The notes beneath the pieces are model-generated. The model saw nothing but the letters and a program-made list of their open reading frames with translations, did not search any database and was not told the DNA's origin. Both the position numbers and the translations under genes were made by a program. Source: an uncultured delta proteobacterium (GTDB taxonomy: Bacteria > Desulfobacterota > Desulfomonilia > UBA1062). From it: DNA of 64,000 bases. This document shows, piece by piece, positions 20,201 to 33,953 of the stretch. Positions within the stretch are counted from its first letter, which is position 1; each line of letters opens with the position of its first letter. The DNA lies in NCBI GenBank assembly GCA_963798485.1, contig CAWCTR010000007.1, forward strand, positions 544,001 through 608,000. Direction: 5' to 3'.

Positions 20201-22183
20201 TTACACTGTTCTGAACACGATCTGTTCAGCCTTATCTCTGCCCTGGTTGCGTGCATTAAAGGTCTGCACTGCATTGGCCTTGAGCTGGTCATTGCCCTGG
20301 AAGCCTTTGTCCAGGCAGATGAACTGCATAGGCTCTGCTGCTGCAACGGCATCAATCAGCTCACGGGTGATCTTATCCTCAAGACAGATGAGCAAGGCCC
20401 CTTCGGCTACGGAGAAAACCGTCATCCCTGCCATTTCAAGTTTCTGAACCTTCTCAGTCGGCATGAAGCCTGCCTTTAAAAGCAGCTCATAGAGAATATC
20501 TTCCTGTGATGCATGAGGATTGATATGATCGATGTGCAATGTAAGCTGCCTGATCATCTCTTCTTCGGATGCACCCGGCCTGGAGCCGTCCCAGATCTTG
20601 AAGGTGGACCTGTCGAGCTTGAAGACCTTGAAGCCAAGATCAATCACGGGTAGGTTCTCAGCCATGCCTGGTAAAGCACCGATGGCTTCTTTAACCTTTA
20701 CTGCCCGTTCCTCCTCGATCTTCTTAATCACTCGACGAATACGTTCCTTGCCGATATCAGCGATTGTATTATATCCGGCCTTGAAGGCTTCCGAATCTTC
20801 CTCGCAGGGCTCCGGGAGTTGGACCATGATGAACTTCCTGTTACCACCATCCTCCTTATTCAGGTCGAGAACTGCGTGTGCGGTAGCAGAAGAGCCAGCG
20901 AAGAAGTCTAGGACTAAATCATCCCTTGAAACAGATATCTCTAACATCCTCTTTAAAAGACGGACTGGTTTTGGAGTACTGAATATTTTTTTACCTAAAA
21001 GCTGTCCTGTTTCTTTTTGCCCCTCATCATTGTGTCCAACCTCCTCAAAGGTCCACCATGTAGAGGGTACTATTCCTTCTTGAATTTCAGTAAGAAAGCG
21101 TTTCAGTCTTGGTTTCTTATACGATAGATCTGGACCCCAATATAGCCTACTTTCTGCCTCCATCTGTTGATGCTTTTCTTTGGTGTAACGCCACACAGCA
21201 TTTTCATCAGGCCATATTTCTTCACCAGTTTTAGGGTGGATAATTGAATACCAGAGTGTTGGTCGTTCAGATTTTGATTTGCTACTTACATATTCTCCAG
21301 ATGTCCAATCACCGCGAGGATCATTGTCTGGATTACTGTACCGCTGTAATTGCTTCTCCGTTCTGGGTAGAAGTTTTCGCTGGAATGATTCGGATTTTCT
21401 ATATGACAAAATATGATCGTGCATAGGGGCAATACTTGGATCATCATTTGAAACAGAATATTTCTTCTGCCAAACTACATTTGCCACAAAATTATCTTCT
21501 CCAAAAATCTCATCACAAAGCTTCCTCAGGTTGCTCACCTCATTGTCATCGATAGAGATAAAGATCACTCCGTCTTCCCGCAGGAGATTCCGTGCCAGGT
21601 AGAGCCGGGGATATATCATGTTGAGCCACCTGGTGTGAAAACGACCTTCATTGGGGGAATTGGTCGAGAATTTCTTCCCTTCGTCATCCACAAGCCCGGC
21701 ATAGGCAAGATAGGTCTCTAAGGTTTCAGCATATTTGTCAGGATAAATAAACTCCTTGCCGGTGTTGTAGGGCGGATCGATGTAGATCATCTTGACCTTG
21801 CCGTAGTATGACTTCTGCAGGAGCTTGAGCACCTCCAGATTGTCACCCTCAATGAAGAGGTTTTCTGTGGCATCGAAGTTGATCGACTCCTCACGGCAAG
21901 GTTTCAGCGTGGCAACCGAAGGCTGCTGGATGAGCTTTAAACAATCCTTTTTACCAGGCCAGTCCATGCCATAACGCTCACGCCTGGATTCGAAAATATC
22001 ACTAAACGCCCCCAAATCTGCCTTGAGCTTTTCAAAGTCAATTGTTTCGACCAGCTCACCTTTCTCATTTCGCGATTCGGTAAAGACCGATGGGAAGAGG
22101 GCCTTCAGCTTGGCCCTGTTTCCTGTGCTTATATCCATGGACCGCAGGTCCATTTGCCCTGGTATTCCATTCGGTTCCTTCAT
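20201..22183 (-). CDS. mod: Type III R-M adenine methyltransferase Mod
   Basis: IEGDNLEVLK, IYIDPPYNTG, TPKPVRLL and LDFFAGS motifs. Confidence 0.95.
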   Translation of the reverse strand: MKEPNGIPGQMDLRSMDISTGNRAKLKALFPSVFTESRNEKGELVETIDFEKLKADLGAFSDIFESRRERYGMDWPGKKDCLKLIQQPSVATLKPCREESINFDATENLFIEGDNLEVLKLLQKSYYGKVKMIYIDPPYNTGKEFIYPDKYAETLETYLAYAGLVDDEGKKFSTNSPNEGRFHTRWLNMIYPRLYLARNLLREDGVIFISIDDNEVSNLRKLCDEIFGEDNFVANVVWQKKYSVSNDDPSIAPMHDHILSYRKSESFQRKLLPRTEKQLQRYSNPDNDPRGDWTSGEYVSSKSKSERPTLWYSIIHPKTGEEIWPDENAVWRYTKEKHQQMEAESRLYWGPDLSYKKPRLKRFLTEIQEGIVPSTWWTFEEVGHNDEGQKETGQLLGKKIFSTPKPVRLLKRMLEISVSRDDLVLDFFAGSSATAHAVLDLNKEDGGNRKFIMVQLPEPCEEDSEAFKAGYNTIADIGKERIRRVIKKIEEERAVKVKEAIGALPGMAENLPVIDLGFKVFKLDRSTFKIWDGSRPGASEEEMIRQLTLHIDHINPHASQEDILYELLLKAGFMPTEKVQKLEMAGMTVFSVAEGALLICLEDKITRELIDAVAAAEPMQFICLDKGFQGNDQLKANAVQTFNARNQGRDKAEQIVFRTV

Positions 22184-23586
22184 GGCATCTGCTCCCGTTG
22201 CTTCAAGATCTGTTTCCCCTTTCCCGTGAGGCGGTATTGCTGTTTACTGCTCCGGGGTTTTTCAGGGATGGTCATCTCAATGCAGCCTGCTTTCAGGGCG
22301 GGCTTGATGTAATCATATAAAAAAGTAGGACGATGCACAAGTTTAAGCCGGACCATCAATGTTTTCATGTCAACAGGTTCATCACCAAGGACTGCCATAA
22401 GGCGGCCTACTTGTTCGGTGACTTGTTCGGTGACTTGTTCGGTCCCCTTGCTTAATTCCCGCGCCGCCTCGGTGCTCTTGCCGGGACGTTGGAAGATGAC
22501 CGTTACCCAGCTCTGATTGCATTCCAACACCGGCTCTTCTATTTCATACTCACGGCACAGGTCTCTGATTCGTTTGATACCGGAACCGATATGTTCCACC
22601 AGGTTCATGCGGTACATAGCCCCGAAGAGAAGCGGGTTACGCGGCACGCTCTTTTTCCCGAGGTCTTCTTCCCGCATTCCTGCAGGAAGCCCGCCCGGAC
22701 TGACTATCTCTATCCTGTCGGAAAAAAGGTAGATCTGAATATTTGCAGTGGCCCGATAATCCCTATGGGCGACGGCATTGATGAGGGCTTCTCGAATGGC
22801 TGCTTCAGGCAGCTCAAGTCGTTCGGTCCGCCGTGCTCCTGCTATGATGAACTCGGTATTGAGCTTTGATAATATGTACTCTATGGCAGACTCACAATTC
22901 GTATGAATGTCTGAGGAGAAATCCTTGCGGTCAAGGATACGGGTTTTTGTGTTTCCCATGAAAAGGGCACAGGAGATGGTAGCGCTGATGTTGTATGTGG
23001 TAACGTCTTCAGCCAATAACCATGACCCGGCATTCGTCATCTTTCCATTTCGGATGAGATGCAGATTTTCCAGGGCATGAAACGGGTCAAGGGTTGACGG
23101 TATATGGGCGATACCGGCGAAGCGCCTATATCCTTCCATCTGCAGATCCCTTGAGAGGTTAAAAGTTTCACACGGCATTTCATCAAACCTGATAAGGCCT
23201 TCTTTGAAGAAGAATTCCCGAATCTCTTCCCGCCCCATCTGCTGAGAATTAGCTCCTTCCCTGATAAAGAACTTCCCGGCAAAGGAGTACGGTTTACTGT
23301 GTTGTTCGGGCACGGTAATGCATAAGATGTCTTCTATACTTTCAATATCAACAGCCAGCGGGGGTTCCATGGATCGTGCAATTGTTTGGATCTCCGACTT
23401 TATCTTGTTGTGGTTCTTTATACCCATGATCGTCCCGTCGTCGGACACACCGATAAGCATTACGCCACCAGTGGCGTTCCCGAACGCACAAAGGTCCCGG
23501 CCTATAGTGCCTGAGACAGACCGTTTAAATTCGAGGGTAAACCCTTCTCCGAGACCTATAAGTTGTTCTAACTGAGAACTATTCAT
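22180..23586 (-). CDS. AlbA_2 (Schlafen-like) DNA-binding / HATPase_c_4 / winged-helix protein
   Basis: GEGFTLEFK...AFGNATGG.MLIGVSDDG, REALINAVAHRDY, SPGGLP, RNPLL, EHIGSGI; C-terminal IPEKPRSSKQQYRLT. Confidence 0.85.
   Translation of the reverse strand: MNSSQLEQLIGLGEGFTLEFKRSVSGTIGRDLCAFGNATGGVMLIGVSDDGTIMGIKNHNKIKSEIQTIARSMEPPLAVDIESIEDILCITVPEQHSKPYSFAGKFFIREGANSQQMGREEIREFFFKEGLIRFDEMPCETFNLSRDLQMEGYRRFAGIAHIPSTLDPFHALENLHLIRNGKMTNAGSWLLAEDVTTYNISATISCALFMGNTKTRILDRKDFSSDIHTNCESAIEYILSKLNTEFIIAGARRTERLELPEAAIREALINAVAHRDYRATANIQIYLFSDRIEIVSPGGLPAGMREEDLGKKSVPRNPLLFGAMYRMNLVEHIGSGIKRIRDLCREYEIEEPVLECNQSWVTVIFQRPGKSTEAARELSKGTEQVTEQVTEQVGRLMAVLGDEPVDMKTLMVRLKLVHRPTFLYDYIKPALKAGCIEMTIPEKPRSSKQQYRLTGKGKQILKQREQMP
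22409..22443 (-). repeat. Coding 12-bp tandem repeat x3 (TEQV)3
   Basis: acttgttcggt(g) three times; translates as TEQVTEQVTEQV. Confidence 0.85.
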
Positions 23587-23937
23587 TCAAGCCTCCACTG
23601 TACCGTGAAAAGGGTCTCTTCTTCAACCTCCTGATGCAGGCGGGCCTCAACCCGGTCTATCAGGGAGTCTTTTTGTTGCTCGATGTCTCGGGCCGCCTCG
23701 TCGTACTGTCGCCATGCCTCATCCCGCTTCAATGGTTTTGCCGAGCCCCACTTCATCCGCGAGTACGGCCCCTTTCGAGAGAGGTGATTGAAATGCAAAC
23801 AATGCCGCATCCATCTGGTGAGTGTTCAGATCGACCCGGGAGTCCATTAAAGCGGCTGTGAAACGTTCCACACTATCAGACGGGCAGCGCCTCAACAGCT
23901 CATTGGCGAAAAGCTTGGCGTGATAATCCGTGATCAT
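23583..23937 (-). pseudogene. SNF2-family helicase remnant: N-terminal 72 aa joined out of frame to the C-terminal ~48 aa
   Basis: MITDYHAK...LADEVGLGKTIEAG* (Walker A) joins (K)RDEAWRQYDEAARDIEQQKDSLIDRVEARL...LFTVQWRLE*. Confidence 0.8.
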
Positions 23938-24429: not shown

Positions 24430-26589
24430 TTACATCATGGAATAAGGGTCCACATCGATCCTGAGGTCTGCCTCCTGCGGACATCGGACCTGTTCAATGA
24501 TGTCAAGGGCCTTGTGAAGTGAACCTCTGTTCTTGGACCTCAAAATGATATGCCATCTGTTGCGGTTTCTTAAAAGCGAAATGGGGGCCGGGGCAGGACC
24601 GAGGACCTCGACGCCTTGTATCTTAACAACCGATGCAATCTGAGTGCAGAACTCTTGAGCCGTCTTGTCTTTGGCCGAGCTGATCACACATCGGGCCATG
24701 TGGGAGAATGGCGGGAAGCCGGTTGCCTTTCTGATGTCCTGTTCCATTTCTATCATAGAGAGATAATCATAGCGTGAAATCGAGTGGATAAGCGGGTGGT
24801 CAGGGATAAGGGTCTGGATGATCACCTTGGTGTCGGACTTCCGCCTGCCTGCACGTCCGGCTACCTGTACTATCTGCTGGAAGGTCCTCTCCAGGCTCCT
24901 GAAGTCGGGCATATGCAGAAGCTGCTCGGTATAAATCACCCCCACCAGGGTAAGATTGGGGAAGTCATGTCCCTTGGCGATCATCTGGGTGCCCACAATG
25001 ATGTCCACATCGCCGGCCCTGATGGCATCGAGGGCGGTTGTCAATTTTATCGCAGTCGTTATCTCGTCCGAGTCCATACGCAACAGACGCTTATCCGCAC
25101 AGGCCTTTTCCACTGAGGCTATGACCTGTTCCGTACCCATTCCAATGGGTTTCATATCGAGACATCCGCAGGAGGGGCAGATCTCCGGCAATTTCATGGT
25201 AAAGCCGCACCAGTGGCATAGGCCTAAACCCTTGGCCTTGTGGTAGGTGAGGCTCCTGTCGCAGCGTTTGCACTTAAGGACCTTGCCGCATCCCGGGCAT
25301 ACCATGGCGGCCGAGAACCCCCTCCGGTTGATAAAGAGCAGCACCTGCTCGCCCCTATTGACGGTATGGTTCATCTCCGTGATGAGTCTTTCCGACAGCG
25401 GTCCTTCCACCCCCCTCATATCCACGATCTCTACTGCCGGCAATGCTGCGGGGCCGATACGGTTCGGCATGGCGATGAGGCTTGAATGCGATAACCGTGA
25501 GCGTTGATAAGTCTCCATGCTCGGTGTGGCGGAGCCCAGGATCACCACGGCCTGGTTGTTCCTTGCCCGCAGGATGCTCAGGTCCCTTGCGTTATAGGGT
25601 ATGCCGTCATCCTGCTTGTAGCTGTGGTCATGTTCTTCGTCCACTATGATGAGGCCGATGTCCTTCAAAGGCGAGAAGACCGCTGAACGGGTACCGAGAA
25701 TGAAATTGACACCCCCTAGGGCCACCTTCATGAATTCCCTTGCCCGGTCCTTTGGGGAAAGGCCAGAATGGAACACCGCCACCTCTACAGGTATCCTGCC
25801 CTTAACCATGTCGATGGTCTGGGGTGTCAGGGCGATCTCAGGGACCAGATAGAGAACCGACTTGCCTTGCCTGAGGGCCTCCAGTGCAGTTGCCAGGTAT
25901 ACCTCGGTCTTGCCCGATCCTGTGATCCCATGGAGTACATAGGTGTGAAATCTTAGGGCCTTGATGGCCTTGGTTATCTCTTGAACAGCCATCTGCTGGT
26001 CCGGGGTGTACTCCGGTGTCGGGGAGCAGGAAGGGACGAAGCTGCTAGGCCCTTCTTTGAGCTCTATGAGGCCGCGTTTGAGGAGGCCCTTTATCTTCCC
26101 GGCCATGCCCGGTAAACAGCGTTTGAGGTCACTCAAGCGGATGCCTGTATGGGGAATGGAATCAAGGACGGCTTTCTGTTGAGGTCCGGTCCTGGTGTGT
26201 ATGCGATTGGTCCTGAATACGACCGGGTCCTTATCAATTGGTATAGTGCGCCCCCCCCTGAGGTATGGGGGAAAGGCAAGCGCCATGCAGGGGCCTATGC
26301 CTGCATGGTAATATCTCGAGGTCCAGGTTATGAGCTCGATCAGCTCTGATGTTATGACGGGACTCTCATCAAGTGCGCATATGAGGTCCTTTAACCCTTC
26401 ATTTGTCTGGGTTCCCTCATGGATGCCGATGATGACCCCGATCCTTGCCGCCTTCCTGACCGGTGCTGCGACCCTGCAGCCTACCTTCGGGGATACCCCT
26501 TCAGGGATCGAATAAGAGAGAACTTTGGGTATGTTTGTAAGAATGACAACATCGGCTATGAGGGCTCCCATAAAGGACTGCTCTACCAT
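24430..26589 (-). CDS. priA: Primosomal protein N' (replication-restart helicase); start may be 26571
   Basis: GITGSGKTEVY, VPEIALTPQ, DEEHD, SATPS, four CxxC pairs, GTQMIAKGHDFP and QVAGRAGR motifs. Confidence 0.97.
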   Translation of the reverse strand: MVEQSFMGALIADVVILTNIPKVLSYSIPEGVSPKVGCRVAAPVRKAARIGVIIGIHEGTQTNEGLKDLICALDESPVITSELIELITWTSRYYHAGIGPCMALAFPPYLRGGRTIPIDKDPVVFRTNRIHTRTGPQQKAVLDSIPHTGIRLSDLKRCLPGMAGKIKGLLKRGLIELKEGPSSFVPSCSPTPEYTPDQQMAVQEITKAIKALRFHTYVLHGITGSGKTEVYLATALEALRQGKSVLYLVPEIALTPQTIDMVKGRIPVEVAVFHSGLSPKDRAREFMKVALGGVNFILGTRSAVFSPLKDIGLIIVDEEHDHSYKQDDGIPYNARDLSILRARNNQAVVILGSATPSMETYQRSRLSHSSLIAMPNRIGPAALPAVEIVDMRGVEGPLSERLITEMNHTVNRGEQVLLFINRRGFSAAMVCPGCGKVLKCKRCDRSLTYHKAKGLGLCHWCGFTMKLPEICPSCGCLDMKPIGMGTEQVIASVEKACADKRLLRMDSDEITTAIKLTTALDAIRAGDVDIIVGTQMIAKGHDFPNLTLVGVIYTEQLLHMPDFRSLERTFQQIVQVAGRAGRRKSDTKVIIQTLIPDHPLIHSISRYDYLSMIEMEQDIRKATGFPPFSHMARCVISSAKDKTAQEFCTQIASVVKIQGVEVLGPAPAPISLLRNRNRWHIILRSKNRGSLHKALDIIEQVRCPQEADLRIDVDPYSMM

Positions 26590-26626: not shown

Positions 26627-26656
26627 TTGACTGATTGTATCCTTCCCCTTTATATT
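26627..26656 (+). promoter_or_regulatory. Putative sigma70 promoter of the HEAT-ParA-coiled-coil operon
   Basis: TTGACT-N18-TATATT. Confidence 0.45.
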
Positions 26657-26682: not shown

Positions 26683-27339
26683 TTGAAGGGCATAGGCTTG
26701 AACCAGATTCTTAAGGACCTGCACGATGCAGACCCTGAAATCAAGAAGATGGCTGCAAGGGCCATACTCAAAGAAATCCCGGACCCCGCACTGGTTTTAT
26801 CCGAGGCGCTGAAGGAGGCCGATAAGCCTACAGCTACTGCCATCTATGACATCCTCTTTGATGCCCAGGCCGATTTCTCAAATATCTTCCATGCAGCCAC
26901 CCAGGATGAAGACCCCCGGGTGAGGGCGCGGGCCATACGGTATCTTTTCCGGAGAGGCGCATTCCACCCTGAAGATGGAATCAAATGGCTTGAAGACTCA
27001 GACCCCTATGTCCGCAGGAGGGTTATCAGCTATATCTTCTGGTTGAATGACAAGAGCTCTCTTGGCGCAGTGGCAAGGCTCTGCATAGAGGACCCGGATG
27101 AATCCGTCAGAAAGGACTGTCTGAGACTGATCGCCATATGGGGTTCGATAGAAAATGTGGAGAAGGTGATCCAGGCCCTGGAGGACCCGTCACATGAGGT
27201 GAGAATGCAGGCTGTGCAGACCCTCAAAAGGCTCACGGGTGAGGATTTCGGAGAGCCGCTTGGTGCTTCACCAGAGGAATTCGAGTGGATTATTGCAAGG
27301 TGGCAGGGCTGGTGGGAGATCATGAGGGAGCGTCCATAG
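26683..27339 (+). CDS. HEAT-repeat protein (PomY-like by context)
   Basis: Repeated D.DP.VR..A motifs; C-terminal LKRLTGEDFG...WQGWW; TTG start after ggggagg. Confidence 0.8.
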   Translation: MKGIGLNQILKDLHDADPEIKKMAARAILKEIPDPALVLSEALKEADKPTATAIYDILFDAQADFSNIFHAATQDEDPRVRARAIRYLFRRGAFHPEDGIKWLEDSDPYVRRRVISYIFWLNDKSSLGAVARLCIEDPDESVRKDCLRLIAIWGSIENVEKVIQALEDPSHEVRMQAVQTLKRLTGEDFGEPLGASPEEFEWIIARWQGWWEIMRERP

Positions 27340-28299
27340 ATGGAACAACCCGTATATACGGCCAAGGAATTTGCAACATTGCTCGGGATTTCAAAGCCGG
27401 CCCTCTTGAAAATGGAGATGAACGGAACACTCCCTCATCCCCAGCTTGTTGAGGGCGCTCGTGTCTATTATCCGCATGACATCCCCTTTTATCTTAAGAG
27501 CCTCGGAAAACCTCTATTGGTAACATCAAAAAGGAGGCAGATATTCCTCAACTTTAAAGGGGGAACGGGAAAGACGAGCAGCTCGGCCTTCTATGCCTTC
27601 AGGCTCGCTCAGCTCGGTATGCAGGTGCTGCTCATGGACCTTGACCCCCAGGGCCATCTCACTCAATGTCTTGGGATCGACCACGATTCCATTGAAAACA
27701 CCTTATATAATGTCCTTATCGAGAAGACGGACATTCGCGACATTATCATAAACACGAAGATGAAAAATCTTAAGCTCATCCCTGCGAACCTCGACCTCTC
27801 TCCGGTGGAACTGGCTCTCACCTCCATGAATGCCCGCGAGCAGCGCCTGAGAAAGAGTATAACCGCGATTCAGGATGACTTTGATGTGATCATCATGGAT
27901 GCCTCGCCATCCATCGGCTTATTGAACCTGAACGGTATCCTTGCCTGCAACGATCTCTTTGTCCCGGTTTTGGCGGATTTTCTGTCTTACCATGGGCTTA
28001 AGATCCTCTTCGAGACGTTATCGACTATTGAGGAGGACTTTGAATTCATCTTTGAGAATATCTATATCTTTCTGAATAACTATAATGCATCCCACAATAT
28101 CTGCCAGCGGGCGAAAGAGGCCTTGGAGACGCACTATAACGGCTATCTTATGAAGACGCTGATACGCCAGGACATAAAGATTGCTGAGGCGGCGAGCGTA
28201 GGGATACCTATTACGCAGTATGCGCCGAAGAACAGAGGCTCGGTAGATCTGAATGATTTTATTCGGGAGGTTTTTCCTAATCTCCCGATTGTCTTTTAA
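27340..28299 (+). CDS. pomZ: ParA/MinD-family ATPase with N-terminal HTH, PomZ-like
   Basis: RRQIFLNFKGGTGKTS (deviant Walker A), DLDPQGH, NDLFVPVLADFLSYHGLKILFET and IRQDIK closely match the M. xanthus PomZ sequence as recalled. Confidence 0.8.
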   Translation: MEQPVYTAKEFATLLGISKPALLKMEMNGTLPHPQLVEGARVYYPHDIPFYLKSLGKPLLVTSKRRQIFLNFKGGTGKTSSSAFYAFRLAQLGMQVLLMDLDPQGHLTQCLGIDHDSIENTLYNVLIEKTDIRDIIINTKMKNLKLIPANLDLSPVELALTSMNAREQRLRKSITAIQDDFDVIIMDASPSIGLLNLNGILACNDLFVPVLADFLSYHGLKILFETLSTIEEDFEFIFENIYIFLNNYNASHNICQRAKEALETHYNGYLMKTLIRQDIKIAEAASVGIPITQYAPKNRGSVDLNDFIREVFPNLPIVF

Positions 28300-28391
28300 T
28301 CGGTTTTATGGTTAACGTAGTATTCGGATTCAACCTGAAGGGCATTGGATTTTTTATGATGCCAATAGATTGAAATGAGGAGTTATTATAT

Positions 28392-29159
28392 ATGAAAGAC
28401 GGTTTTGATACAAGCGTAGCTGAACGGATGCCCAAGATGCAGAAGCGCCGTCCCAACAGGCCCTGGAATGTAGACCCTGTACTGATAAAGCCGCAGGAAG
28501 AGATCAAAGAGCAGGCCGCGCCCGCTCCGGAGGCAATCAGAGAACCGGTTATATCCCCCATCATATCCAAGGATATCGCCCATTCCTCCATTGCCAAGGC
28601 TGTGGAAACCATTGAGGACCTGAATACCGAGTTCTCGCAGATCCTCTTTGAGAAGAAGGACGTCGCCCGTAGACTCAAGGATCATGATCGCGTCATCGAA
28701 GAGATCGGGCGGGAAAATTCAAGCCTCAAGGTGAATCTTGCCGAACTGGAAATGGCGGCACAGGAGCACAAGCTCCTGGATCGGGAGATCCTGTTCCTGA
28801 ACGAACAGCTCGAAGATGCAGACCATTATATCCAGCATGTGGTGGGTATGCTCGAGGAAAGGACAATAGGCTTCGATGCCGAGGTGACAAAAAGCAAGGC
28901 CTTCGAGGACAGGCTCGTGCGCTTCTCAAAAGACATCCAGGACAAGGCAAGGCTCGACGTCAAGGTATCCATCCTCGAGAAGGACCTCGGTATAAGCACT
29001 GCAAGAATTCAAGAACTGGAAACCAAGCTCGAGGAAGAATACCATAAGAGAAAACCGCTGGAAGATGAGATAGCAGAGCTCAAGATTGCACTGGACAGGG
29101 TATACTCGTCCCTGTCGCATATCAGGCTCAAGGCTAAGCGTGAGGTGTATGGATCCTGA
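28392..29159 (+). CDS. Coiled-coil protein with basic N-terminal peptide and Pro-rich linker (PomX-like)
   Basis: N-terminus MKDGFDTSVAERMPKMQKRRP, Pro-rich segment, then ~190 aa of heptad-rich sequence; SD gaggag. Confidence 0.65.
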   Translation: MKDGFDTSVAERMPKMQKRRPNRPWNVDPVLIKPQEEIKEQAAPAPEAIREPVISPIISKDIAHSSIAKAVETIEDLNTEFSQILFEKKDVARRLKDHDRVIEEIGRENSSLKVNLAELEMAAQEHKLLDREILFLNEQLEDADHYIQHVVGMLEERTIGFDAEVTKSKAFEDRLVRFSKDIQDKARLDVKVSILEKDLGISTARIQELETKLEEEYHKRKPLEDEIAELKIALDRVYSSLSHIRLKAKREVYGS

Positions 29160-29382
29160 TACCTCGAAGAAGGTCAACGACCTGCTGGGGCTGATGGAAG
29201 GCATCTCTTCCGACATTGATATAAAGGCGGAGCTCGATAAGATTATCTCCCGGATCCATGAACTTGAGGAGAAGGTAGAAAACCTTGCTCAGAGATTCGA
29301 AAAGATCGAGAAGACGAACCGGGAGAAGCAGGATGTCTTGAAGACCATCAGGAAAGAGCTCAAAAACCTCTTTCCCGGTTAA
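29149..29382 (+). CDS. Small coiled-coil protein (77 aa)
   Basis: ATG 29149 after gaggtg, overlapping the previous stop; heptads LDKIISRIHELEEKVENLAQRFEKIE. Confidence 0.7.
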   Translation: MDPDTSKKVNDLLGLMEGISSDIDIKAELDKIISRIHELEEKVENLAQRFEKIEKTNREKQDVLKTIRKELKNLFPG

Positions 29383-29404: not shown

Positions 29405-30763
29405 TTATTTTGGGATGGTAATGCCGTGTTTTTTAATGAGGTCATGAAGGGTCGGCCTGCTTACATCGAGATCCTGAGCAGCCTTTGATATATTGCCGCT
29501 GTTGCATGCCAGGGCGTGTCTTATGGCTGTGATCTCGGCCGAATCGCGTATTTCCTTCAACGTCTGAGATATTCCTTCATCAGTGGTATCATTGAGGTCG
29601 ATGTCCTGGGGTTGAATGTAATCCCCCTCGGCCATCACGACTGCACGCTTGATCCTGTTCTGCATCTCACGGATGTTGCCTTTCCAGTTGTGTTTCATCA
29701 TGGAATCTATTGCAGCGGAACTGAATCCCTTAAACCTCGGACCGATCTCCCTGCTGAAGGAATCCAGGAAATATCTCGCCAATAGCGGAATGTCATCTGG
29801 TCGGTCCTTAAGTGCGGGCATGGAGAGCGGGACCACATTGAGCCGATAGTAAAGGTCTTCCCTGAAACGGCCCTCATCCACCGCCTTCTTGAGGTCTACG
29901 TTGGTAGAGGCGATCATTCGGGCATCGATGGAGAGAGGTTCTTTGCCGCCAATCCGCTCAATGGTGCCCTCCTGGATAAACCTGAGGAGTTTTACTTGAA
30001 GTTGGAGAGGGAGCTCGCTTATCTCATCGAGAACGACAGTCCCCCCTTGGGCCCTCTCAACCTTACCGATTTGGCGGGCATGAGCACCGGTGAATGATCC
30101 CTTCTCATGGCCGAAGAGTTCGCTCTCCAGGAGATTCTCCGGTATGGACCCGCAGTCGATAATGACTAAAGGTTTATCGGAACGGTCGCTCATGGCATGG
30201 ATCGCTTGTGCAAGACACTCTTTGCCGGTGCCGCTCTCTCCCTGAATCAGAATGGGGTAGTCGGTGCGGGCAACCTTTTTGGCTCGCTCGAACAGGTCCA
30301 TCATGGGTTGGGATGTAGCTACCATGCCATGGAATTGCAATTCGCCCGAGACCATAAACTGGAGTTCTGACACCTGATGCTCCAGCCGGGACAAATGGAC
30401 CGCCCTCTTGATGACGATCCTGAGTTCTTCAAGATCTACTGGTTTGGTATGATAATCGTATGCGCCGAGCGAGACAGCCCTTACCGCATTCATTTTATCA
30501 GTGTTTCCGGTAATCACGATGACCTTTGTTTGATCCTTTTTGCTGATAATTTCTTCAAGGACCCTTAATCCTTCTTCCGCGCTGTCAGGATAGGGTGGAA
30601 GTCCAAGGTCCAGCAGCACGACCAAAGGGCTCTCCTTATCGAGAATACTCACTGCATCAGCGGCATTTGTCGCCGTAAAGATATTATAGGTGTCGCGCAA
30701 GCCCCACTTGAGTTGTTTGGCCATGCTTGATTCATCCTCAATGATCAGTATCTGGTCCTTCAT
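29405..30763 (-). CDS. prsR: PEP-CTERM-box sigma54-dependent response regulator
   Basis: Receiver LDLGLPP..D..EEG, GESGTGKE, GSFTGA and Fis-type HTH; adjacent to prsK. Confidence 0.9.
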   Translation of the reverse strand: MKDQILIIEDESSMAKQLKWGLRDTYNIFTATNAADAVSILDKESPLVVLLDLGLPPYPDSAEEGLRVLEEIISKKDQTKVIVITGNTDKMNAVRAVSLGAYDYHTKPVDLEELRIVIKRAVHLSRLEHQVSELQFMVSGELQFHGMVATSQPMMDLFERAKKVARTDYPILIQGESGTGKECLAQAIHAMSDRSDKPLVIIDCGSIPENLLESELFGHEKGSFTGAHARQIGKVERAQGGTVVLDEISELPLQLQVKLLRFIQEGTIERIGGKEPLSIDARMIASTNVDLKKAVDEGRFREDLYYRLNVVPLSMPALKDRPDDIPLLARYFLDSFSREIGPRFKGFSSAAIDSMMKHNWKGNIREMQNRIKRAVVMAEGDYIQPQDIDLNDTTDEGISQTLKEIRDSAEITAIRHALACNSGNISKAAQDLDVSRPTLHDLIKKHGITIPK

Positions 30764-32835
30764 GTTGTAGTTCTCCCGGATTGATTCTGAGGGAACCATA
30801 CTGAAACAGTGATTCCCCGATCCTGATTCGGCTTCACGTCAATTATTGCCCTGAGCTGGTCAGCCATGTTCTTTACCTGCCAAAGCCCGAGGCCTGTGCC
30901 TTTGTTCTTGGTGGTCTGGAAAGGTTTGAAAAGCTTTTCCCGGATATATTCATCCGTCATGCCTATACCGTTATCGGTGATGGTGAAAACCGGTGAATCT
31001 CCCTTTATGCAGGCGGCGATTGTTATTATCCCATCATCCCCGACTGCCTCAGTGGCGTTCACAATGATATTTTCCAGGATTTTGTCTAAGATATCAGGGT
31101 CAGTGGTAAGCTCGAATGAGCTGTTAAAATCATGTATGACCTGGATATTTTCCAGCCTGGGCCTGAGCCCGGCAACGAGCTCTTCAAGAAAGGGTTTGAT
31201 TCTGAAGGTCTTCGTATGGATTTCCACATGCTCCGGTATTGTCTTAAATTTGCTCATGACCTTATCTATCCGGGCAAGGGCCTCAGAGATGGTGTCAAGC
31301 ATGTCTGTGCGGAATTCTGCCTGATTCATATGTTTAGGGGCATTCTGGAGGATAAGGGAAAGGTGTCCTGCCGCGTTTTTAAGGTCATGAAGCACGGTTG
31401 CAGACATATGATTGTACGTATCGAGTTCCTTGTTCTCGGCGAGCTTCTTGGCATAACGTGCACTCATAAGGGCGGCGCTTGCCTGGGATGCAACGGCGCT
31501 CAGAAGGTCAATATCGTCCTGGCCGTAAGGCGTGCCGGGATTCTCCTGACCGACAGCTATGAATCCTATCATAGAACCTGCCGTCATTCCCACGGCGAGT
31601 TCGACCTTGTTCCGGTTAAGGAAGTCGCGGTGATTTTTTACAATATCCTCCCATAGGGAGTCATTTGTCTTACAAGGTGTTCTCCTCATAAAATATGGGT
31701 TGCTGCCAAGATATTTAACCAGGAGGTGGTTATCACTCATGATTGTCTCCCCGGAGGTGTCGGGGAAGGAAAACGAGCGTTTGTATGATGCCCCTTCGAG
31801 CATCCAGATGGAAAGTTCCCTGATGTACATGCTGTCAAGGATAACTTGGGAGGTAACATGGATGATCTGGTTCTCATTGAAGGCAATTGAGAGGTATCCG
31901 CTCAGCTCTCCCCACTCCTTGCGATAATCATATTTATTTGAGAAAAAGTGGGTATTGATGAAGAACCTTATACGGGCCCTCGCTTCAGGTGATAGAAGGA
32001 AGATGGAAAGTAAAATGAGTGCGAGAAAGACTATGAACCCCATGATTACCAGTGACAGCCTCACACCAAGTTGGTTAATCCATAAGAGAATTAGTCCTGT
32101 AAAGAGGAGGTATGTACCGATGCTGATAAAGGTGATGGAGTGATAGACCACGTAACGCGAAACGAAGATATCCATCTCAAACAGCTTGAACCGGATGGAA
32201 AAGAAGATCAGGAATGCAACACCCACCAGGGTAATCAGCGAGCACAGAATGAGAATGTCGTGAGATATGCTGTTGGTGCTGAGCCTATAGATGGAGGCCA
32301 TGCACAAGGATGCCCCCACAGAGATAGAGCCTAGCGTAGGGTATTTAAGTACTCTTCTGCCGACTCCTTCTGATGATCTGAGGATGTTCTCCATAATCCA
32401 GATAAATGCAATTGCTCCGGCCATGATCAGTAAGGATTGGATACGTCCGAGCCGGTCGATGATCACTTCATCATTGAGGTTTATATGTGCATAGGCTTCC
32501 GGGTAGATTAAAAGCGTAAGTCCATAGAGGGTGCAGGTAAGGATCAGGCCCCGGCGTGTCCAGCGAACGAGCTTAATCTTTCTCGAAATGTTCCTCTCCA
32601 TGGAAAGAACCGAGATGATAAAAAAGCTGATGGAGGCCAACTCGAAGAACGAGGCTGCCTGTAGAGCCAATAGGGTCTCTCTGAGATAATAAATGAGATA
32701 ACTGATCTCGGTGGCTGCAACGGCAAGCAGCCCGCATGCGATAGCCCTCCCATGCGAGGCCCCGCTGCGGGACAGGATGATCATCCCCCCCAACAGGCTT
32801 ACTAATGCGGTTATTCCATAGAAAACTAGAATCAT
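30760..32835 (-). CDS. prsK: PEP-CTERM system histidine kinase
   Basis: Multi-TM N-terminus, HFFSNKYDYRKEW, VLHDLKN, DNGIGM and FKPFQTTKNKGTGLGL motifs. Confidence 0.9.
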   Translation of the reverse strand: MILVFYGITALVSLLGGMIILSRSGASHGRAIACGLLAVAATEISYLIYYLRETLLALQAASFFELASISFFIISVLSMERNISRKIKLVRWTRRGLILTCTLYGLTLLIYPEAYAHINLNDEVIIDRLGRIQSLLIMAGAIAFIWIMENILRSSEGVGRRVLKYPTLGSISVGASLCMASIYRLSTNSISHDILILCSLITLVGVAFLIFFSIRFKLFEMDIFVSRYVVYHSITFISIGTYLLFTGLILLWINQLGVRLSLVIMGFIVFLALILLSIFLLSPEARARIRFFINTHFFSNKYDYRKEWGELSGYLSIAFNENQIIHVTSQVILDSMYIRELSIWMLEGASYKRSFSFPDTSGETIMSDNHLLVKYLGSNPYFMRRTPCKTNDSLWEDIVKNHRDFLNRNKVELAVGMTAGSMIGFIAVGQENPGTPYGQDDIDLLSAVASQASAALMSARYAKKLAENKELDTYNHMSATVLHDLKNAAGHLSLILQNAPKHMNQAEFRTDMLDTISEALARIDKVMSKFKTIPEHVEIHTKTFRIKPFLEELVAGLRPRLENIQVIHDFNSSFELTTDPDILDKILENIIVNATEAVGDDGIITIAACIKGDSPVFTITDNGIGMTDEYIREKLFKPFQTTKNKGTGLGLWQVKNMADQLRAIIDVKPNQDRGITVSVWFPQNQSGRTTT

Positions 32836-32879
32836 AATTTACCGTTGTCATCGTCAATTCGAACAGAGATCTAAAGCAC

Positions 32880-33244
32880 TGTCGAAAAATTTAACAGGCT
32901 TGAGTCCTTGTTGCAAGTCCTATGTGGTTAGATATAAAACGAGCTTAAAATCAATAGGATATAAGTAATACATGTTCAATTTATCCTGAAAATGCGTACC
33001 GCCCTCTTAATAGGTGCTTCGGAGTCATGCCGAATTGTGTCGGAAAATTTTACACAAACGATAAGCCATGCACGGGTAGATTTAATAATAGATTGATTGA
33101 CAAACTAATTAAGAGCGGCGCTCAAATTGCCCTTTAGATTAGCTATAATAAGAAAATGATTGCCCAACTTTGGAGTATTCAAATGAAAGATTCTCATACG
33201 TCAGGTAGCAATCATTCAAATATATTGTGTCGATAAACTTTACA
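32880..33244. promoter_or_regulatory. Three TGT-N11-ACA enhancer sites (putative PrsR / PEP-CTERM boxes)
   Basis: tgtcgaaaaatttaaca (32880-32896), tgtcggaaaattttaca (33038-33054), tgtcgataaactttaca (33228-33244). Confidence 0.75.
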
Positions 33245-33307
33245 GTCTATCAATAACATTTCAAGTGAAACCACTATATTATATGTATAATTAGTATGTT
33301 ATGATAG

Positions 33308-33323
33308 TGGCATATGATTTGCT
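33308..33323 (+). promoter_or_regulatory. Sigma54 -24/-12 promoter of the PEP-CTERM gene
   Basis: TGGCAT-atgat-TTGCT with GG-N10-GC spacing, 40 bp upstream of the ATG. Confidence 0.85.
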
Positions 33324-33362
33324 AATATATCTTCACTAAACTATTCATCTACGAGGTAAGAT

Positions 33363-33953
33363 ATGAGAAAAATATCGGTTTCTTTATTGGCCATCTTGTT
33401 TGTTTTTGGAATGATCGGAACGAGTAATGCTATACCTATAACATTTTCAGTAGATGCGGCAGACTCTTCAGTTCAGTTAACCAACATATCCGGATTTGGA
33501 GCGACAATTACTTCTGCCATGGCAGCCGCGCCTGGTGATTTTACACTGGCTGATGGAGCCTCAAGTACATTTAATTTCTTTTCCCTTACGGTATCTCCTA
33601 CCTTCTTCATCGGTGGAGGAACGGCTGATATTACTGCAACATTAGCCTTCTATTCACCTGAAGCTGTCAGCGTTACTGCTCAAGGGGACATAATGTATGC
33701 GCAGATTTCAGGTATATTGACAACATCTGGAATAACATGGGCTAATATGCCACAGACTGAGTTTCTCTCAAACGGGGATTCTTTTGATGTCAGTTTTCTT
33801 GGCGGTTCATATGGAGGGAGTGATAATACAAGGATGATCACTGCCACAGTTACTGCTCATGCAGCACCGGCACCAGTCCCGGAGCCCATGACCCTGCTTC
33901 TCCTCGGCACCGGCCTGCTTGGCCTTGCAGGGTTCCGCAGGAAGAGTAAATAA
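33363..33953 (+). CDS. PEP-CTERM sorting-domain protein
   Basis: Signal peptide; C-terminal VPEPMTLLLLGTGLLGLAGFRRKSK. Confidence 0.95.
   Translation: MRKISVSLLAILFVFGMIGTSNAIPITFSVDAADSSVQLTNISGFGATITSAMAAAPGDFTLADGASSTFNFFSLTVSPTFFIGGGTADITATLAFYSPEAVSVTAQGDIMYAQISGILTTSGITWANMPQTEFLSNGDSFDVSFLGGSYGGSDNTRMITATVTAHAAPAPVPEPMTLLLLGTGLLGLAGFRRKSK

Follow-up and report, generated by a model that had tools for sequence, protein, structure and literature searches.

The operon and its gene products

The window analysed here is a stretch of 64,000 nucleotides (G000:C7:544001-608000) from the genome assembly of an uncultured relative of the sulfate reducers (Desulfomonilia), which comprises 4.3 Mb in 32 contigs with a completeness of 97.5% and a contamination of 7.0%. 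At 26683-29382 the window carries four co-oriented genes on the + strand, encoding a HEAT-repeat protein, a ParA-type ATPase, a long coiled-coil protein and a short coiled-coil protein. An original prediction made from the window sequence had described these genes as a four-gene operon resembling pomY, pomZ and pomX of Myxococcus xanthus, lying in a non-myxobacterial lineage, with an N-terminal helix-turn-helix (HTH) on the ATPase and no ParB at the locus. It had proposed reciprocal BLAST searches, a phylogeny, a synteny survey and a search for minCDE as checks. The four genes were indeed located on the + strand at these positions. The results described below suggest that the operon probably encodes a reduced Pom-type self-positioning system.

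The first gene (26683-27339, +) lies in the pomY position and encodes a HEAT-repeat protein of 218 aa (Pfam HEAT_2, 1.8e-27). Its longest open frame starts at 26635 (234 aa). Translation more likely begins at a TTG (26683) that lies six bases downstream of a G-rich ribosome-binding stretch (GGGGGAGGG) and gives 218 aa, the length that relatives also have. The stop codon abuts the start of the second gene (27340-28299, +), which encodes a ParA/MinD ATPase of 319 aa (Pfam AAA_31, 1.2e-45), very probably of the PomZ family. In the AlphaFold model, residues 1-55 of the ATPase (27340-27504, +) form a winged HTH with pLDDT values of 90-96, consisting of helices at residues 8-15 and 19-27, strands at 35-37 and 40-43 and a helix at 45-54. 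A weak HTH_17 match (0.0034, residues 5-46) covers the same region, in agreement with the predicted N-terminal HTH. After a gap of 92 nt, the third gene (28392-29159, +) encodes a 255-aa candidate for a PomX-like scaffold and activator, in which a basic N-terminal peptide and a disordered linker precede one long coiled-coil helix. The N-terminal 30 residues (28392-28481, +), with 7 Lys/Arg and an isoelectric point (pI) of 10.3, are the candidate ATPase-activating peptide. The fourth gene (29149-29382, +) overlaps the third by 11 nt and encodes a short coiled-coil protein of 77 aa, whose ATG start at 29149 is conserved in relatives.

The ATPase and the PomZ family

For a PomZ comparison set, the window ATPase was searched against 151 genomes from the phylum of a Myxococcota metagenome-assembled genome (MAG). 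Full-length matches were found in 43 of the 151 genomes, with 43-49% identity and E values of 1.9e-88 to 1.0e-67. The next class of matches started at 6.4e-44 and consisted of ordinary ParAs, which were ~33% identical and aligned only from residue 69 on. We used as reference a locus (L112) at ~763 kb in a 9.0-Mb genome (G119), where an 821-aa frame that combines HEAT repeats with a coiled coil and a Pro/Ala-rich region is followed consecutively by a 319-aa ATPase and a 429-aa protein. All 25 PomZ residues named in the accessible part of 10.1101/2025.12.01.691545 were present in this ATPase at the stated positions, including G62, K66, D90, K268 and both groups of partner-contact residues, and the downstream protein has V9, K13, R15 and L16, matching the PomX description in the same part of that source. 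These matches identify L112 as a Myxococcus-type pomY-pomZ-pomX locus.

BLASTP aligned the window ATPase with the L112 PomZ at 44% identity over 317 residues (2e-98), and the alignment included the N-terminal domain, which matches the PomZ N-terminus. The two proteins were mutual best matches. Searched against G119, the window ATPase found the pomZ locus at 5.5e-83 (next match 6.4e-37), and PomZ searched against the window's genome found the window gene at 3.4e-83 (next match 1.0e-36). Every string that the original prediction had listed as PomZ-specific was present in the alignment with the L112 PomZ. The deviant Walker A residues, the catalytic Asp and the DNA-binding Lys are kept, with G74, K78, D102 and K280 of the window corresponding to G62, K66, D90 and K268 of M. 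xanthus, and none of these four residues varied among 10 Desulfobacterota and 11 Myxococcota sequences. Within the N-terminal HTH, the wing segment (residues ~26-40 of the window ATPase) is kept in Desulfobacterota and in several other Myxococcota lineages; 14-19 residues of the wing are missing from M. xanthus-type PomZ (L112, L145) and from a further group (L146-L150; alignment A3, columns 50-70).

In a quick tree of 54 ATPase cores, 12 Desulfobacterota and 14 Myxococcota sequences grouped in a single clade (SH-aLRT 100), whose stem was 1.4 substitutions per site long. For wider sampling, 1.84 billion proteins were searched and representatives of the matches added; this search returned 602 matches at <=1e-30, including ~15 full-length clusters at 200-280 bits. 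A careful tree of 42 rows separated 14 canonical ParAs from 28 PomZ-like rows with a split support of 100/97, so that the ATPase grouped with PomZ apart from canonical ParAs in both trees. In the careful tree, the Desulfobacterota group (94/91) shared a 23-row clade (93/89) with the Myxococcota PomZ (100/99) and with five further lineages, and this wider sampling did not resolve the Desulfobacterota and Myxococcota groups as sisters. The trees compared the window ATPase with PomZ-like and canonical ParA sequences; MipZ, MinD, McdA, ParC and PpfA were compared by score against solved structures, where they lay far below Soj-type ParAs. The ATPase fell below every NCBIfam cut-off, the best match being RepA (110.3 bits versus a cut-off of 348.45), and it scored 62.3 bits against the SopA family (cut-off 725) and 33.9 bits against minD_bact (cut-off 212.9). 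Collectively, these results place the window ATPase very probably in the PomZ family.

Several other ATPases from this sampling were examined. P0124 (361 aa), a PomZ-like ATPase encoded in a MAG with the label Candidatus Riflebacteria, was placed as sister to myxobacterial PomZ (96/96). P0131 (713 aa) has two tandem ParA-type ATPase domains, seen as two AAA_31 stretches. P0125, P0127 and P0129 (414-584 aa) were considered as HEAT-ATPase fusions and rejected; their N-terminal regions had no Pfam domain, and no 'Rosetta stone' link between the two genes was obtained from them.

According to the accessible part of 10.1101/2025.12.01.691545, PomZ orthologues conserve the residues in contact with PomY alpha5 and with the PomX peptide, and ParA/MinD do not. 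In the window ATPase, six of the eight residues of the alpha5 pocket are identical to M. xanthus-type PomZ, and the other two are conservative changes (Phe to Ile and Leu to Ile). Of the 13 residues of the pocket for the PomX peptide (NPEP pocket), six are identical, four more are variants also found in Myxococcota and three differ. Other Myxococcota PomZ proteins retain 7-8 of 8 alpha5-pocket residues and 7-11 of 13 NPEP-pocket residues, compared to 0-3 of 8 and 2-5 of 13 in nine canonical ParAs. A complex predicted from the ATPase core dimer, ATP, Mg and residues 1-45 of the long coiled-coil protein scored 0.00 against a mark of 0.32, a value that speaks neither for nor against binding.

Gene order and distribution

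The ATPase was detected at E <=1e-55 in 14 of 301 sampled Desulfobacterota genomes (~5%), with a patchy distribution. Carriers were found in four families, namely f1 (3/3 genomes, together with the window's own genome), f5 (1/1), f9 (1/1) and f13 (8/9), and the other family of the window's class had the ATPase in none of its six genomes. The order HEAT-ATPase-coiled coil was present in all 24 Desulfobacterota-type genome loci with flank, from four families, and is the same as that of pomY-pomZ-pomX in Myxococcota. We also surveyed 80 metagenome loci, with a minimum flank of 750 nt upstream for the HEAT gene and 1000 nt downstream for the coiled-coil gene. Among loci with an ATPase at least 70% identical to that of the window, the HEAT gene was upstream in 8/8 and the coiled-coil gene downstream in 9/9; among those at 55-70% identity, the counts were 44/44 and 36/36. 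The proposed synteny survey thus found the order kept wherever the flank sufficed. Genes outside this three-gene core vary between families, so the core looks like a self-contained module.

In family f13 (L133-L141), an extra gene for a protein of 109-110 aa lies between the ATPase and long coiled-coil genes (for example L136:6727-7056, minus strand). A further copy of the N-terminal peptide and a Pro-Trp-Asp-Val stretch are present in the extra protein; in the window's family, both are found in the long protein itself. In at least one f13 locus (L133), a ribbon-helix-helix (RHH) gene is located upstream.

The long coiled-coil protein and PomX

The 255-aa protein is encoded directly downstream of the ATPase, as pomX is after pomZ. 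In its model, residues 1-61 are disordered (low confidence) and residues 62-253 form one helix of ~190 residues with pLDDT >90, which is the same architecture as the PomX domain layout given in the accessible text of PMC7993993. Pairwise BLASTP between the 255-aa protein and PomX was not significant (0.073). Profile comparison by hhalign of 11 Desulfobacterota proteins (A1) with nine myxobacterial PomX proteins (A2) gave a probability of 92.6% (E 4.4e-7, score 56.9), with columns 77-253 collinear with columns 247-427, corresponding to the C-terminal coiled-coil domains. Reversed profiles scored 30.2 and 32.8 and 20 heptad-block shuffles scored 16-23, so none of the controls reached 56.9.

The N-terminal peptide was invariant to nearly invariant in the 11 Desulfobacterota homologues, with Gly4, Phe5, Ala10, Met13 and Pro14 invariant. 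By eye, the 255-aa protein and PomX have Met1, Lys2, Phe5, Val9 and Pro14 in common, as well as acidic and basic residues at positions 6 and 15, respectively. As groups, both sets of proteins show, besides Met1, Phe5, Pro14 and the basic position 15, a basic residue at 2, Gly/Ala at 4, Asp/Glu at 6, Asn/Ser at 8 and Val/Ile/Leu at 9, followed by a Val-Asp-Pro-like stretch about ten residues later. We regard this segment as a likely candidate for an ATPase-activating peptide. A motif drawn up post hoc from the peptide gave three six-frame matches in the genome, one of them after a start codon (the window gene); this result is circular and was not used as support.

The HEAT protein and PomY

The HEAT_2 matches of the first protein comprise four stretches within residues 116-198 of the 234-aa frame, with no coiled-coil family match, and the protein ends ~20 residues past the last HEAT repeat. 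BLASTP against the L112 PomY aligned only the HEAT repeats (0.004), and the Arg-Arg-Gly ending of myxobacterial PomY proteins is not present in the window protein. In the accessible text of PMC10307791, PomY has a pI of 9.3 and its coiled coil is needed for condensates in Myxococcus and linked to FtsZ recruitment. The accessible part of 10.1101/2025.12.01.691545 assigns the activating activity of PomY to the C-terminal residues 496-682, which comprise alpha5 and a globular domain. Judged by sequence, the window protein is PomY-like in its HEAT core and gene position only.

The short coiled-coil protein

The 77-aa gene was kept in all nine loci of the window's family, the window included, that have downstream sequence. 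Its product has no NCBIfam match and no detectable Myxococcus counterpart. We considered whether it could be the PomY coiled coil split off as a separate protein, and, as far as sequence shows, rejected this on an hhalign probability of 4.6% (reversed control 1.1%). As far as the sequences compared reach, the gene is found only in the window's bacterial family.

The host genome, FtsZ and Min

MAGs with Desulfomonilia, Deltaproteobacteria or Thermodesulfobacteriota labels encode proteins that share 91-96% identity with the ATPase, and a few near-identical proteins stand under evidently loose labels, such as Bacteriovoracaceae. The near-identical proteins in Desulfomonilia MAGs, together with the same locus family in the sample of the host's own phylum, show the genome to be non-myxobacterial, as predicted. 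FtsZ gave one match in the genome (421.8 bits versus a cut-off of 295.2). A search of the genome, which is 97.5% complete, found no MinC and no MinE, and the best MinD match of 124 bits lay below the cut-off of 212.9; the proposed minCDE check therefore returned no Min protein above cut-off. Two other canonical ParA genes are located elsewhere in the genome. MinD-like matches at G000:C2:6529-7278 and G000:C3:10822-11571 have identical scores and frame lengths (66.8 bits, 306 aa), and their presence on two contigs suggests a duplicated stretch in the assembly.

Neighbourhood of the operon

Upstream of the operon lies priA (24430-26589, minus strand; TIGR00595, 560.7 bits versus a cut-off of 230.35). 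Downstream, at 29405-32835 on the minus strand, the PEP-CTERM regulators prsR and prsK form a pair, and each scores above its cut-off (PrsR 567.3 bits versus 502.6, PrsK 324 versus 300). These flanks hold no ParB, as had been predicted for the locus. A PEP-CTERM protein is encoded on the + strand after prsR/prsK (29405-33953 region; TIGR02595, 27 bits versus 16), and PEP-CTERM genes adjoin the operon only in the closest relatives.

A promoter-like site (TTGACT, an 18-nt spacer and TATATT; 26627-26656, +) is located upstream of the operon and agrees with the consensus at 10 of 12 positions. Since the region has nine such sites compared to 3.9 expected from shuffles, we treat it as a consensus match only. 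Two overlapping terminator-like hairpins were found at 28263-28303, where the ATPase gene ends, ahead of the 92-nt gap. The region has four terminator-like sites compared to 3.1 expected, and these hairpins may be due to chance.

Further upstream, the stretch 20201-23937 (minus strand) includes a 72-aa frame that is similar to the N-terminal part of DISARM/Dpd-type SNF2 helicases (1.3e-11) and looks like a truncated remnant. Its neighbours are a 660-aa adenine-methyltransferase-like gene and a 468-aa gene without an NCBIfam match. The G+C content of the window is 0.57-0.58 at 10-16 kb and drops to 0.47-0.50 at 16-24 kb, the stretch with the methyltransferase and the helicase remnant.

Comparison with PomXYZ

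The operon and PomXYZ of M. xanthus share the ATPase family (44-47% identity), including the N-terminal domain, the DNA-binding residues and part of the partner-pocket residues, the gene order, and the PomX layout and coiled-coil profile; FtsZ was present in the host and no Min system was found. The ATPase clade, synteny and taxonomy checks were all in favour of a Pom-type system in a non-myxobacterial lineage, as originally predicted. The two systems differ in several respects. The window HEAT protein is acidic and has 218 aa, whereas PomY is basic and has 682 aa in the numbering of its paper. The PomX-like protein has 255 aa and a short linker, whereas PomX has 404 aa. The window's family adds the 77-aa coiled-coil gene, and f13 adds the 110-aa protein with the peptide copy and the RHH gene. 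The window ATPase keeps the full winged HTH, of which M. xanthus-type PomZ has lost the wing segment, and the host belongs to Desulfobacterota rather than Myxococcota.

A number of observations weigh against a Pom-type reading. In the ATPase, Glu256, Gln271 and Glu275 of the PomZ NPEP pocket are changed. Lys13 of the activating peptide, which is essential in PomX, is not conserved in the window protein, where it is replaced by Met. A hidden Markov model (HMM) built from nine myxobacterial PomX N-termini gave the Desulfobacterota proteins at most 3.2 bits; the window protein, at 1.9 bits, was not above noise among the 37,927 frames of the genome, and other frames scored higher. Because this HMM missed the window protein, the proposed homology of the peptides comes from inspection. 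Of the predicted PomX-like partner, the architecture, the coiled-coil profile and the gene position were thus borne out, and the activating peptide was seen by eye and not recovered by the HMM.

The HEAT protein departs further from its counterpart. With a pI of 5.1 it is acidic, and it has neither the N-terminal coiled coil nor the disordered region, alpha5 and globular domain of PomY. In G119 the PomY locus was its second-best match (4.0e-5, compared to 5.1e-8 for another HEAT protein), and PomY was not its best match in G094 or G131. Conversely, when the window's genome was searched with a profile of 13 myxobacterial PomY HEAT regions, the window protein came second (1.5e-14) after a different HEAT protein (6.2e-26). 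The PomY-likeness of the original prediction therefore extends to HEAT repeats and position, and not to the coiled coil, the intrinsically disordered region, the activating C-terminus or a reciprocal best match. Lastly, MinC was found in 26 of the 301 sampled Desulfobacterota genomes, with 0 of 14 among carriers of the ATPase and 26 of 287 among the others. As only ~1.3 MinC carriers would be expected among 14, this anti-correlation is uninformative and the absence of Min is weak evidence.

A proposed mechanism and its alternatives

Weighing these points, we favour a reduced Pom-type self-positioning system as the product of the operon. By analogy with Myxococcus PomXYZ, it is likely that the proteins form a nucleoid-riding positioning machine with the long coiled-coil protein as activator and scaffold. 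ATP-bound ATPase dimers would coat the nucleoid via the conserved Lys280 patch, and the coiled-coil protein would polymerise into a scaffold cluster, with its N-terminal peptide stimulating the ATPase to hydrolyse ATP. The cluster would then be driven to mid-nucleoid by a difference in ATPase flux between its two sides. The HEAT protein may ride on the scaffold, as the HEAT part of PomY binds PomX. Compared to PomXYZ, such a machine would have one activating protein instead of two and no condensate-forming PomY coiled coil. The cluster would most likely mark the site of FtsZ-ring assembly, and we give the divisome an even chance of being the cargo. We infer the cargo and all dynamic steps by this analogy, starting from the observed family membership, conserved residues, architecture and synteny.

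Alternatively, the same machine may have a cargo other than the divisome, such as another protein assembly or a storage body that is kept single or centred. The parts of PomY tied to FtsZ recruitment and condensates are missing here, the HEAT protein is not the reciprocal best match of PomY, and the rarity of MinC in the phylum (26/301) gives no pointer to a need for Pom. The accessible text of PMC11407121 describes ParA/MinD ATPases as positioning many kinds of cargo. One comparable arrangement is McdA/McdB, which also has an orphan ParA-type ATPase and a small, part-disordered and part-coiled-coil partner that serves as activator and cargo mark, roles that the window protein may share by analogy; McdA is distant, however (47.8 bits), and no carboxysome or microcompartment genes were seen beside the operon in the examined stretch. 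The genes beside the operon vary between families and include no conserved candidate for a cargo. Moreover, the only characterised members of the ATPase clade place the division site, and FtsZ is encoded in the genome, where our searches found no further known placement system. Taken together, a different cargo appears unlikely, though it keeps a real share of the probability.

DNA partition was also considered, with the ATPase as a type Ia-like ParA carrying an HTH and the coiled-coil partner replacing ParB, for the chromosome or an integrated element. Type Ia ParAs (P1 ParA, SopA, RepA) likewise have an N-terminal HTH before the ATPase, and the window protein overlaps with them structurally, P1 ParA and Vibrio ParA2 aligning over ~360 columns with TM scores of 0.71-0.74. 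The best NCBIfam match, to plasmid RepA, includes the N-terminal part; its score is nevertheless far under the cut-off (110 versus 348), as is the score for SopA. The coiled-coil partner has no DNA-binding domain and is not of ParB type. The locus lies on the chromosome, beside priA and within a contig of at least 608 kb, and its distribution follows host families rather than mobile elements. Type Ib ParA/Soj-ParB systems share the ATPase fold and include the best solved relatives (8ray, 125.8 bits; Soj structures, TM 0.64-0.73). Their dimers bind DNA non-specifically and are activated by the basic N-terminal peptide of a partner, and the window proteins may by analogy do the same. In contrast to the window ATPase, Soj types have no N-terminal domain, are at most ~36% identical to it and form a separate clade (100/97). 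No ParB/parS was found at the window locus, and the genome has two canonical ParAs of its own. A role in partition therefore seems improbable.

That the four genes are unrelated neighbours whose likeness to pomXYZ is coincidental is very improbable: pairwise BLASTP of the partners against PomX and PomY was weak (0.073 and 0.004), yet the order was kept in every locus with enough flank, across ATPases 58-60% identical and in Myxococcota, the HEAT and ATPase genes abut, the coiled-coil genes overlap, and the coiled-coil profile match beat all controls.

Returning to a Pom-type system, we tentatively suggest a broader reading, which we hold to be somewhat doubtful as a whole. The three-gene core could be the ancestral, single-activator form of Pom and could place the division site in several Min-less lineages outside Myxococcota (four Desulfobacterota families, perhaps Riflebacteria), with the second activating module and the condensate coiled coil of PomY being later myxobacterial additions. 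In that case, the conserved alpha5 pocket would serve another helix, possibly the Trp-rich C-terminus of the HEAT protein or one of the extra small coiled-coil proteins.

Implications

In the accessible parts of PMC7993993, 10.1101/2025.12.01.691545 and PMC10307791, the Pom system is described as conserved in myxobacteria/Cystobacterineae, and the orthologue searches covered 'fully sequenced genomes of myxobacteria'. We found no report of a PomZ homologue in Desulfobacterota or deltaproteobacteria in the literature covered, which was available in part and lay outside the 2013 PomZ and 2017 PomXYZ primary papers and the supplements. The operon widens the known range of PomXYZ by a clear relative in Desulfobacterota, and suggests that the Pom machine arose earlier, and in a simpler form, than the one known from myxobacteria. 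The question of division-site placement has been raised for Desulfovibrio in the accessible text of PMC4672049. For Desulfobacterota, which are mostly MinC-less, the operon offers a candidate for this function, carried by only ~5% of sampled genomes (14/301). Having short proteins, only one candidate activator and no coiled coil for condensate formation, it would be a natural minimal version of the machine. Such a version could separate the parts needed for positioning from later additions, and may ease reconstitution in vitro.

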